Part shown: positions 58,692 to 61,481 of the stretch, piece by piece
How the letters are laid out: each line of letters begins with the position of its first letter
How positions within the stretch are numbered: position 1 is the first letter of the stretch
DNA from: a phage
Length of the DNA stretch: 64,000 bases
Reading direction: 5' to 3' (one strand)
Sequence record: PQ478073.1
Program-made: the position numbers and the translations under genes
The notes under the pieces: generated by a model
Seen by the model: the letters and a program-made list of their open reading frames with translations, nothing else
What the model was told of the DNA's origin: nothing
The model's database searches: none

Positions 58692-61481
58692 ATGTTAAAC
58701 AATAATATTGATAATATTGTACAACTTCTTTATGGGCATCACAAATTTATTGAAAGAAATACTGGTGATACAATAGACCCAACAGTACAACATTATGTGG
58801 TGAATAATCAGGGTGTTTTGGCGAACAACCGTCATTTTATTAACTATTCTGCAATGGAAGGTCAACCAAACGGTGACGGGACAACAGAAGGTCAAAGTCT
58901 ATTAATTTTAGGATACATTTATGCGTATCTGGCAACAAATGATCCAATGTTTTTAGATAAAGCCAAATGGTACTGGGATGCATATCATCAGTACTTTTAT
59001 GCTGGACGTGAATTACCAGATCCACCTACACCACTACAATGTAACTGGATAGTTAATGCCAAAGAACCTATATTGGCTAACTGGCCTTTAGCTGATGATG
59101 GATGGCCTACACATGGTGGTTTCAAGGGTGTAGAATTTACATTTACAAATGGACAATGTAAAATACCACATGGTGCACCTTATTATGGTCAGTTCTTGGA
59201 TAAAGTAACATTTGCATTCAAAGGTGCTTTAGCATGGAACCAAATAAATGCGTCAGTAAAAGCATTATTACCAGATGGTAGTGTTGATTGGGATACACCA
59301 GGTGAACAATATGATGTTGACTGGATTATCGATTTCATGGGTAGAAAAATCGACTGGGATGGTAATATTTTAGCAGAAGGTTTTGACGAATCTGAAAAAG
59401 GAACTGTTCAATTAAAGAATACAACAATTAATGGTGTATATAAATTAAATTTTGCAAATCGTCAACCAGTAGAATATGGTGGTGTGATAATTCAACGAAA
59501 TGAAATGCAACACAACCGCCCACTTCATGTTCCAATTGATTTGGAATTTGCGGATAACGCATCAGATGCAGAATTGTGGTTTAGTGATGCTTCTTATTTG
59601 TTATATAAAATAACAAAAGAAAGAAAACATTATTTGGGTTGGAAATGTTCACTACTAACGTGTTATGCTTATGGTGATATTGACTCCAGAGATAAATTTT
59701 TCAGACAAAGTACAATTGTAACCACACCATTCACTGATGGTATTTCCTATGAATATTTTTATCCAAGTGATGCTATTGCTAAGTTTGGTAGAAATTCTCT
59801 AGGATATATTACTATCAGGCAAGACCAAAGTGCACAAAGTACAATGGAACAACAAGCTATTTGGTTCAGGGTCAATGCTGATTCTAAATTACTTGTAGAC
59901 TATGGTGGTGTATGTGATGATGGTAAGCCGTTATCATTTAAACCAGTACTTGAATTGTCAAAAACAAAAAATGACCATGATGTTGTTCGTTATCGTTGTG
60001 GCTTACCGGAAAGTAAAGACCAAAATATCACACATTCATTAACACCTTTAAGTGCATTTGTTAGAGAAAAGAAAGCAGATGGTTCCCCTTATATAATTGC
60101 TGATAGTAGAATTGTTGTTCCTTATGGTGCAGCTACGTCCGAAATGATATATAGTACTGATATATTAGTTACACGCCGCGATACCATTAATCAGTTAGTT
60201 TGTGGTGAAGATGATGGTGCTGTTATTGGATTTTGGCTATTAGCAACAAATAAGTCTGAAGTTAAATCTTTTACCTATCGTTCATATGAAGATGATTACA
60301 ATATAAGAATTGTAGATGATAATGGTTGGAGATGGTGGTGGATGATTCCTGCAACACACGGGGAATGGACTACAATCACACTAAGTCCCGATACATTACG
60401 TTTATCTGGGTATCAGCCAAATCATCCAAGTTCTGACCCAAGACCAGATGCACCAGTTTATAGTGAACTAGAAGATATTACTATTTTACCTGATACAACC
60501 CCAGTAGATGGTGTTGCTGCAATAATTGATTGGTATTGTATTAATGACATTCCAGAATTATACACGGATGCTGACGGTGATGACTATACTATGACATTTT
60601 CAATAACAATTGCAGGTGAATCACCATATACTGCACAGTTAGGGGATTGTGTAATCAAAGATTATTTGTTAAACTCATTGCATTACACACCAGGAACAAT
60701 ACCATTTTCTAACATCACTGACCCGTATGCGAACCAGTATTCAGGATGGCGTGGTTTACCGTATCCAGGTTATCAATATCCTGTGATATATTGTTTTAAA
60801 GACCAGCCAGTAGATAACACACGCTTAGGAAACATGTTAAGCTTTATGAAAGATTCCCAAACATGGTTTACTCAACAATTCGGTACTGTTGGTCCGTGTG
60901 CACAAGCATATGTTTGGAACCGCTGGGATAACTTAAAATATGGTGAACCAGATACATTTACTATGCTACATTGGGGTGATCAAGCATGGAGTGGGTATGA
61001 ACCACGTGCGTTCTTTGGGGCTGCCAGAGCATGGCAAGAACTCGCAGAGAGAGGAATTGAACCACCAGCAGATCTTGTTGAATTTTGTGAGAATTGGATT
61101 CACTTTTTAATTCAATTTCAAAAAGATAATGATGGTCGTTCACCAACAATCTTCAATAAAGATGGCACAGTTGAAGGTCCAGATTGGGACTTTACAGGTC
61201 ATATGTGTGGGTTGTGGTTAGCTGGGGCTTGTGCTGCTGGATTGGCTGGATGTAAAATAGAAGGTCTAACAACACTCGCTGATAACTTAGTTCTCGAACT
61301 TCAAAAGAATTATGTTATTGTAAATCCAGGTTCACCAATGAATGGTTCATGGAGTCCAGCAGTTAGAGAAGGTACTGATAATGGTATGTTTTTTGGTTTC
61401 TGGGCAGGTGAGATTATGCGTGGATTGGGATTATACTCAATGTACCGCTTAAACACACCAAATCGTTTCCGTGATTTATAA
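58692..61481 (+). CDS. large protein (929 aa), possibly a tail-associated glycosidase/depolymerase
   Basis: ORF track; N-terminal region reminiscent of alpha/alpha-toroid glycoside hydrolases (weak). Confidence 0.6.
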   Translation: MLNNNIDNIVQLLYGHHKFIERNTGDTIDPTVQHYVVNNQGVLANNRHFINYSAMEGQPNGDGTTEGQSLLILGYIYAYLATNDPMFLDKAKWYWDAYHQYFYAGRELPDPPTPLQCNWIVNAKEPILANWPLADDGWPTHGGFKGVEFTFTNGQCKIPHGAPYYGQFLDKVTFAFKGALAWNQINASVKALLPDGSVDWDTPGEQYDVDWIIDFMGRKIDWDGNILAEGFDESEKGTVQLKNTTINGVYKLNFANRQPVEYGGVIIQRNEMQHNRPLHVPIDLEFADNASDAELWFSDASYLLYKITKERKHYLGWKCSLLTCYAYGDIDSRDKFFRQSTIVTTPFTDGISYEYFYPSDAIAKFGRNSLGYITIRQDQSAQSTMEQQAIWFRVNADSKLLVDYGGVCDDGKPLSFKPVLELSKTKNDHDVVRYRCGLPESKDQNITHSLTPLSAFVREKKADGSPYIIADSRIVVPYGAATSEMIYSTDILVTRRDTINQLVCGEDDGAVIGFWLLATNKSEVKSFTYRSYEDDYNIRIVDDNGWRWWWMIPATHGEWTTITLSPDTLRLSGYQPNHPSSDPRPDAPVYSELEDITILPDTTPVDGVAAIIDWYCINDIPELYTDADGDDYTMTFSITIAGESPYTAQLGDCVIKDYLLNSLHYTPGTIPFSNITDPYANQYSGWRGLPYPGYQYPVIYCFKDQPVDNTRLGNMLSFMKDSQTWFTQQFGTVGPCAQAYVWNRWDNLKYGEPDTFTMLHWGDQAWSGYEPRAFFGAARAWQELAERGIEPPADLVEFCENWIHFLIQFQKDNDGRSPTIFNKDGTVEGPDWDFTGHMCGLWLAGACAAGLAGCKIEGLTTLADNLVLELQKNYVIVNPGSPMNGSWSPAVREGTDNGMFFGFWAGEIMRGLGLYSMYRLNTPNRFRDL

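Follow-up and report, generated by a model that had tools for sequence, protein, structure and literature searches.

A virion protein with a predicted six-hairpin glycosidase barrel, and its putative tail adaptor, in an Asteriusvirus jumbo coliphage

The 929-residue protein and its upstream partner

The stretch of DNA analysed here (64,000 nucleotides of phage sequence record PQ478073.1, referred to as the window) is assigned by megablast to an Asteriusvirus (121Q/PBECO4-like) jumbo coliphage. Its + strand carries an open reading frame (ORF) of 929 codons at 58692-61481, for which an earlier note, made from the sequence alone, had proposed a glycosidase-like protein next to fibre genes and, by extension, a tail-associated polysaccharide depolymerase. 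We describe its product as a virion protein that is predicted to fold into a six-hairpin glycosidase barrel, that is unusually conserved across phages of different host genera, and that may rely on the product of the gene directly upstream for its place on the tail.

The ORF runs exactly from ATG to stop and is 100% identical to a gene of vB_EcoM_E9.1 and 99% identical to gene 509 of 121Q (gp509) and its counterparts in PBECO4 and phAPEC6 (gp314c, with 99.1% identity at the nucleotide level), although the deposited labels of these orthologues vary between tail protein, tail fiber, tail formation protein and hypothetical. The protein also matches PHROG 2871 ('tail protein') over residues 2-926 with an hmmscan E value of 0. 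Given these identical annotated phage genes, the PHROG match and the 292 homologues described below, comparison at the sequence level indicates that this is not a chance reading frame. The phAPEC6 orthologue, gp314c, was found in purified virions by electrospray ionisation tandem mass spectrometry (8 peptides, 13% coverage; PMC7247149), and the 929-residue protein is therefore considered a virion component. Homologues in other phages, which include phi92 gp141, are located in baseplate or fibre modules, and together these observations support the tail association that had been proposed. In the 2026 cryo-electron microscopy study of phi92, the fibres were not resolved and gp141 was not placed (PMC13450770).

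Directly upstream, with a single base between its stop and the start codon of the 929-residue ORF, lies a gene of 178 codons (58154-58690, + strand) which falls in 'tail fiber protein' PHROGs (PHROG 32568). Its N-terminal ~70 residues are lineage-specific, whilst an alignment of its homologues (A2) and a survey of homologous loci delimit a conserved C-terminal domain of ~110 residues (~58355-58687), in which L100, Q125, G128, N130, W134, L148, D156, D164, G166, T168, W169 and G171 are invariant. We refer to this gene as the adaptor, for reasons that are set out below.

Predicted fold and conserved residues

The structure predicted for the 929-residue protein has a mean predicted local distance difference test score (pLDDT) of 90.7 and a predicted template modelling score of 0.85. 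DSSP assigns helices at residues 6-22, 65-82, 85-102, 291-308, 311-328, 709-730, 770-786, 793-812, 836-851, 859-872 and 904-919, which are split by two large beta-rich inserts (~113-283 and ~336-685). The model supports a complete (alpha/alpha)6 six-hairpin glycosidase barrel built from three non-contiguous stretches of the chain, and it contains a closed 12-helix barrel that is superposable on known six-hairpin glycosidases. A hydrolase-like domain is thus present in the prediction, and the fold suspected in the N-terminal third of the protein is borne out, whereas its confinement to that third is not, since the barrel also uses residues 284-335 and 686-929. The profile comparisons that had been called for alongside structure prediction were less favourable, with no significant match to a glycoside hydrolase (GH) found by hidden Markov model (HMM).

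The first barrel segment (residues 1-112; 58692-59027) contributes the helices 6-22, 65-82 and 85-102 together with a highly conserved loop at residues 41-64. Within it lies the aromatic-rich segment YIYAYLATNDPMFLDKAKWYWDAY (residues 75-98; 58914-58985), which the earlier note had found reminiscent of alpha/alpha-toroid glycosidases and which indeed forms one alpha/alpha hairpin of the predicted barrel, taking in the latter half of helix 2 as well as helix 3. When a profile of an alignment of 74 homologues (A1) was compared with the sequences in the PDB, the only match was to a GH76 hairpin motif (E 4.5e-4), and this fell exactly on the same segment. Between helices 3 and 4 is the well-conserved beta-rich insert A (residues ~113-283; 59028-59540), in which Foldseek recognises jelly rolls of carbohydrate-binding module (CBM) type. 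It is followed by the second barrel segment (residues 284-335; 59541-59696), a hairpin of the helices 291-308 and 311-328, by the beta-sandwich inserts B and C (residues ~336-685; 59697-60746), and by the third barrel segment (residues 686-929; 60747-61478), which holds the remaining six helices and whose conserved face loops (741-780 and 881-920) bear W742, R744, D746, Y769, R772 and E907.

Foldseek searches with the full-length model gave poor multi-domain alignments (TM scores of 0.1-0.2) that show only the presence of jelly-roll and alpha/alpha elements, with matches to CBM22, Vip3, EngBF and neuropilin-type jelly rolls and to GH48 and GH78 barrels. The jelly-roll matches fit the view that the inserts are carbohydrate-binding-type beta-sandwiches. 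A search of PDB sequences with the 929-residue protein returned no match, and neither this search nor that with the A1 profile revealed a solved structure for any member of the PHROG 2871 family. The structure searches gave no match to a beta-helix, and the model consists of the alpha/alpha barrel and beta-sandwiches with no sign of a trimeric spike.

Conservation in the family is concentrated on the loops of the barrel face and the helix N-termini (residues 41-80, 261-300, 341-360, 661-700, 741-780 and 881-920) and is lowest in the beta-domains at residues 401-520 and 581-660. Across A1 the invariant or near-invariant positions include E66, D292, E294, D746 and E907 as well as many Trp, Tyr, Arg and His residues. 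Two short motifs stand out among these. TTEGQS (residues 64-69; 58881-58898) lies at the N-terminus of helix 2 and contains E66, which is at least 90% conserved and is our candidate catalytic acid; ASDAE (residues 290-294; 59559-59573) lies at the start of the second segment and of helix 4 and contains D292 and E294, both invariant in A1. E66, D292 and E294 are all retained in the homologues from rV5 (31% identical), Vibrio phages, Seoulvirus, phiR8-01, ZCSE2 and phi92.

Both motifs resemble sequences of the Escherichia coli GH8 enzyme BcsZ, namely TTSEGQS and ASDGD. The top local match from hhalign pairs TTEGQS with TSEGQS of BcsZ (only 6 columns, E 0.12), and the Glu of that BcsZ motif (E55) is the residue changed from E to Q in PDB entry 3qxq. 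In 7f82, a D to A mutant, the altered residue is the Asp of the GH8 motif Y-D-A-I-R. An optimal global alignment pairs both motifs with BcsZ collinearly, with a z score of 1.46 against shuffles that is not significant. Set against the PROSITE GH8 signature A-[ST]-D-[AG]-D, ASDAE has Glu in place of the second Asp, and later positions of the signature differ. The global and local hhalign comparisons, the search of BcsZ with a barrel profile and the shuffled global alignment were all non-significant. Because every attempt to establish homology with GH8 fell short of significance, we report the motifs as a lead rather than as membership; the protein looks like a glycosidase of the clan GH-M type, and we do not file it in GH8.

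Family distribution, attachment and neighbouring genes

Searching a database clustered at 90% identity returned 292 homologues at E <= 1e-3, most of them ~50% identical over their full length, and clustering at 50% identity divides the PHROG 2871 family into only 233 clusters, in a set of 1.84 billion representatives. By tblastn, homologues occur in 531 phage records that span myo-, sipho- and podophages. They include the phi92-like, phAPEC8-like, PVP-SE1-like and rV5-like myophages, the SPN3US-like jumbo phages, ZCSE2-like phages, Vibrio phages, the T7-like podophages Yersinia phiR8-01 and Cronobacter Ss1, and the Stenotrophomonas siphophage Philippe; in Felix O1-like phages the match is spread over several genes. 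A further 39 loci were found in species-representative bacterial genomes, nearly all from Gammaproteobacteria (including Pseudomonas, Serratia, Proteus, Stenotrophomonas, Aeromonas, Acinetobacter and Halomonas). The sole genome match from outside the proteobacteria, in a metagenome-assembled genome labelled 'Bacillota bacterium' (L122), has an adaptor that shares 76% identity with its counterpart in Salmonella phage ZCSE2, and is probably a phage contig placed in the wrong bin, with no Gram-positive host involved.

The 929-residue protein is 57% identical to phi92 gp141 over 99% of its length and 31% identical to the rV5 type, and full-length identities between phages of different genera or species are in the range of 43-57%. 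The hosts of phages with ~50% identical homologues include Escherichia, Pseudomonas, Serratia, Stenotrophomonas, Yersinia and Vibrio. Because this conservation spans host genera, in contrast to serotype-specific depolymerases, the target of the protein is likely to be a ligand or substrate that is itself conserved.

The adaptor domain accompanies the family closely. Its end lies within ~90 nt of the start of the homologue at 72 of 87 viral and reference loci (80 viral loci from IMG/VR and 7 reference loci) and at 26 of the 39 bacterial loci. The loci that lack a separate adaptor domain comprise 6 that are truncated, 20 in which the homologue is fused to the P2 baseplate protein gpI, one in which it has an N-terminal extension of 279 residues and one that was unresolved. 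In the 20 gpI fusions (11 viral or reference loci and 9 bacterial loci), which belong to Serratia and related P2-like prophages (among loci L005, L066-L074, L079-L080 and L104-L113), the whole ~930-residue barrel module is joined in frame to the C-terminus of gpI (Tail_P2_I) to give a protein of 1097 residues. Downstream of the fusion these prophages encode an ordinary gpH-like fibre, a tail-fibre assembly protein (chaperone), sheath and tube, and since the normal fibre is retained, we consider the barrel module to be an add-on and not the fibre itself.

Where the adaptor is a separate gene, its N-terminus differs with the type of tail. In phiR8-01 the adaptor g043 carries a T7 tail-fibre N-terminal domain (E 5.6e-9), and in rV5 the adaptor carries a TSP1/gp66 tailspike N-domain (E 2e-10). 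A 560-residue partner in an Enterobacter siphoprophage combines a weak match to the N-domain of the lambda tube protein with the adaptor C-domain; in this prophage (L003/L004, 8319-12823) the homologue is flanked by the head-completion genes on one side and the tape-measure region on the other, an arrangement which suggests that the enzyme decorates a siphovirus tail by way of a tube-protein paralogue. From the synteny and the fusions we infer that the N-terminus of the adaptor docks on the tail whilst its conserved C-domain, which has no match in Pfam or the PDB, holds the barrel protein. A search for direct fusions of adaptor and enzyme returned only a weak match to P0142 (E 1.4e-3) and an odd fragment of 293 residues (P0172), and so lends weak support. 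Four extended family members (P0140, P0142, P0143 and L131) have N-terminal extensions of ~280 residues that end in an adaptor-like motif and may, judging by that motif, be such fusions; C-terminal extensions of 500-600 residues are seen in P0096, P0105 and P0143. The phAPEC6 record contains no coding sequence for the 178-residue adaptor, and its absence from the phAPEC6 proteome is for that reason uninformative. A small ORF that overlaps the adaptor start from upstream (58000-58191; 58063-58191 as gene 507 of 121Q) has a counterpart in phAPEC6, gp315c (4.66 kDa), which was detected in virions at 69% coverage (PMC7247149).

Beyond the adaptor, the claim that the gene lies next to fibre genes holds less well, as its other neighbours are mostly non-structural: NrdD/NrdG, an RlaP-like nucleotidyltransferase, an acyl-carrier-protein (ACP)-like protein, a spanin and an HNH endonuclease. 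Two large paralogues, which may be associated with the virion, are found 4-10 kb upstream, and in this 350-kb genome the pair otherwise stands alone among non-structural genes, far from any fibre cluster. The immediate flanks are the nucleotidyltransferase (56753-57985; Pfam E 3e-16), whose RlaP-like relatives belong to an RNA-repair pathway, and the ACP-like ORF (61556-61975), a weak match; these are odd, non-structural surroundings for virion genes. At 32 nt past the stop of the 929-residue ORF, a consensus scan identified a terminator-like hairpin with a 10-bp stem and a T-run (61513-61546, + strand), which by its position is likely the 3' end of a transcription unit formed by adaptor and enzyme. 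The same kind of scan found a perfect sigma-70 consensus promoter (TTGACA-17-TATAAT, 12/12) at 61483-61511, abutting the hairpin, so that promoter and terminator both lie inside the 75-nt gap between the 929-residue gene and the ACP-like gene.

The two large upstream paralogues (48643-51339 and 51865-54684) encode proteins of 898 and 939 residues that are 27% identical (E 2e-63) and belong to phrog_3573, with no match in Pfam, NCBIfam or the PDB. Between them, an ORF of 195 codons (51351-51938) resembles only their C-terminal ~120 residues. At the position of this gene set, phAPEC6 encodes gp323c (98.6 kDa), which is in the list of virion proteins identified by mass spectrometry (PMC7247149), and these proteins may be uncharacterised virion or fibre components. 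Three small tandem paralogues (54752-55318, 55325-55846 and 55843-56352; phrog_18641 / phrog_7868) separate the large paralogues from the nucleotidyltransferase.

Possible role and comparison with known systems

Taken together, we favour with moderate confidence a reading in which the 929-residue protein is an accessory tail protein of ~105 kDa with a glycosidase fold, which is held by an adaptor and which binds, and probably hydrolyses, a conserved glycan. Its core would be the (alpha/alpha)6 barrel, with CBM-like beta-sandwiches inserted in loops on the putative substrate face and with E66 as the candidate acid in catalysis. Having no virion anchor of its own, the protein would attach to the tail through the adaptor, whose gene lies upstream and is translationally coupled to that of the enzyme; the conserved C-domain of the adaptor would dock the enzyme and its variable N-terminus would fit the tail in question, with P2-like prophages using direct fusion to gpI instead. 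The glycan would be one that is conserved on the surface of Gammaproteobacteria, for which the core region of lipopolysaccharide (LPS) is the leading candidate, and contact with it may bring the tail to the outer membrane or help it to engage there; the target is unlikely to be a capsule or O-antigen specific to a strain.

Data from two other phages bear on this. In phiR8-01, g043 and its homologue g044 fill the slot of the gp17 tail fibre, between an internal virion protein and the holin and terminase genes, with no other fibre gene there, and the receptor of this phage is given as the LPS inner core in a review (PMC6950378). In Bas54, the homologue bas54_0026 carried transposon insertions at 94 of 189 TA sites, with a consensus score of 'Intermediate', and was considered by the authors to be dispensable on K-12, whilst the adaptor homologue bas54_0025 was scored 'Essential' (7 of 47 sites hit; bioRxiv 10.1101/2025.11.20.689424). 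After liquid competition, insertions in bas54_0026 were left only at scattered sites and with low counts (bioRxiv 10.1101/2025.11.20.689424), which suggests that its loss carries a fitness cost. Together with the gpI fusions of P2-like prophages, these data indicate an accessory glycan-engaging tail protein whose importance depends on the other fibres of the phage.

Several observations weigh against this reading. The base Asp of the GH8a motif Y-D-A-x-R is not conserved; the family has W-[SAD]-G-Y-[QE]-[PA]-R-A instead, mostly with Gln, and the 929-residue protein has Glu (E770). Neither Pfam nor NCBIfam matches the full-length protein, a construct reduced to the barrel has no Pfam match at E <= 10 either, and the family HMM of the barrel matches BcsZ only at E 0.1; no glycoside hydrolase family is linked to the protein by sequence with statistical significance. 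That the conserved residues gather in one pocket is deduced from their position in the secondary structure of the model, and the contact between adaptor and enzyme from synteny and fusions rather than from a model of the complex. The case for the LPS core is thin, as it draws on the receptor of one phage as given in a review (PMC6950378), and the Bas54 homologue is only 31% identical to the protein in the window and is dispensable on K-12.

The fold, together with the aromatic and charged residues conserved on the barrel face, would suit binding as well as catalysis, and the GH8-type base position is not conserved. The protein could thus be a non-catalytic receptor-binding protein, in which the barrel pocket and the beta-sandwich inserts serve as a lectin for a conserved envelope glycan; the adaptor pair as the only fibre of phiR8-01, a phage whose receptor is the LPS inner core, would sit well with this. 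We consider it unlikely, however, although it survives better than the other alternatives, given that three or four carboxylates (E66, D292, E294 and E907) are kept down to 31% identity, which is more than binding usually demands, and that two of these are found at helix N-termini that bear the GH8 catalytic motifs.

It is improbable that the protein instead serves as the hub or scaffold around which a branched fibre apparatus is built, conserved on account of its protein-protein contacts. The gene does head the lateral-fibre cluster in phi92 and rV5-like phages, ahead of large variable fibres, and its conservation is unusual for a tail-fibre protein. However, P2-like prophages carry the module as a terminal addition to gpI and keep a normal fibre, there are no further fibre genes after the pair in phiR8-01, and in the window the gene is far from any fibre cluster and probably ends its own transcription unit; the Bas54 homologue, moreover, tolerates insertions.

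Slightly less probable still is a depolymerase in the usual sense, which the earlier note had suggested and which would act on a strain-specific capsule, exopolysaccharide or O-antigen and produce plaque halos. A glycosidase-like fold on a tail protein is what such an enzyme might present, and among the depolymerases compiled in a 2017 review, phi92 gp141 is entered as 'Glycosidase' with reference to Schwarzer et al. 2012 (PMC5380687). Known depolymerases diverge with the serotype of the host, whereas this family retains 43-57% full-length identity across genera and species, the opposite of what is seen for strain-specific enzymes. The model, furthermore, has neither a beta-helix nor a trimeric spike architecture, and E. 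coli K-12, on which phages with this gene grow, is without O-antigen or capsule. Least probable of all is a non-hydrolytic enzyme of the same fold (a glycan epimerase, an isomerase or a lyase-product hydrolase) that modifies the receptor glycan without cutting it, since the echoes at the sequence level are solely of GH8 and GH76 motifs and no such enzyme is known to occur on phage tails.

Returning to the accessory glycosidase-fold protein that we favour, a bolder version of this proposal can be put forward only tentatively, as possible but doubtful: that its members make up a glycoside hydrolase family not yet catalogued, with a distant likeness to GH8 and GH126 and no entry in Pfam, which a universal adaptor domain delivers onto the tails of myo-, sipho- and podoviruses and which cleaves a glycan conserved in the envelope, for instance the core oligosaccharide of LPS. 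If it is a new family, then with its 531 phage records no other alpha/alpha-toroid tail enzyme would come near it in frequency among phages of Gram-negative bacteria, and if it cleaves the LPS core, this would be an activity described for no phage enzyme.

The finding in the window re-derives an annotation that already exists, as the family is already labelled 'Glycosidase' in the 2017 review and annotated as a tail fibre 'with glycosidase domains' in GenBank record MZ501082. We found no biochemical activity reported in the literature for any of its members. To this our analysis adds the discontinuous architecture of the barrel, candidate catalytic residues, and the near-universal attachment through an adaptor domain or gpI fusion. 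Phage tail enzymes attract interest as tools against biofilms and capsules and because they help to determine host range. As this family is unusually conserved, it probably targets an envelope sugar that is itself conserved and not one particular to a serotype, which would bear on the engineering of broad host range. The DepoScope study found alpha/alpha toroids in 11 of 984 depolymerase folds with a pipeline seeded by InterPro domains (PMC11326577), which would have missed the PHROG 2871 family because it has no such domains, and the same applies to depolymerase predictors based on Pfam or InterPro in general.

The closest relatives, of the phi92 gp141 and rV5 types, are homologous to the 929-residue protein over their full length and share with it the upstream adaptor gene and the association with virions. 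They differ in that their genes lie inside a baseplate or fibre module, whereas the pair in the window lies alone and the N-terminus of its adaptor is unrelated. The lateral fibre of Vequintavirinae annotated as an N4 gp64-type 'poly-GlcNAc deacetylase' (BASEL S5F) was considered and rejected as a relative, as the family HMM found nothing in N4 gp64-67 and BLASTP gave no match to the proteins of the rV5 locus. Amongst enzymes with the inverting (alpha/alpha)6 fold of the clan GH-M type, GH8 (BcsZ and CelA) and the GH8-like CPF_2247 of GH126 (3REN) have no significant sequence similarity to the 929-residue protein. The latter differs from them in being virion-borne, in carrying ~520 residues of beta-domains in two loops of the barrel, and in not conserving the GH8 base Asp. 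The resemblance to GH76 alpha-1,6-mannanases is confined to a generic repeated hairpin, each stretch of which is insignificant alone, and no conserved adjacent Asp-Asp pair such as that of GH76 was seen in the barrel segments of A1. The VP4 tail protein of the archaeal virus SSV19 (7xdi_F) is a much weaker match with no sequence relationship.

The beta-helix tailspike depolymerases, including P22 gp9, the phi92 endosialidase gp143 and the colanidase gp150, are likewise borne on tails, act on carbohydrates and help in crossing surface glycans. These are, however, trimeric beta-helix or beta-propeller spikes with an N-terminal anchor of their own and variability at the level of serotype, whereas the 929-residue protein is largely an alpha-helical barrel, is highly conserved and appears to depend on a separate adaptor. 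In this last respect it is better compared with systems that pair an adaptor and a tailspike, such as the T7 gp17 N-domain adaptors of SP6/K1-5-like phages and the N-domains of CBA120 TSP1 and G7C gp66, in which a small protein with a tail-docking N-domain also presents a separately encoded enzyme. The adaptor in the window differs from these in having a conserved C-terminal domain of ~110 residues as its putative docking surface and in serving one conserved cargo rather than interchangeable spikes, an arrangement that suggests a portable docking system which might be reused for mounting cargo on different phage tails.

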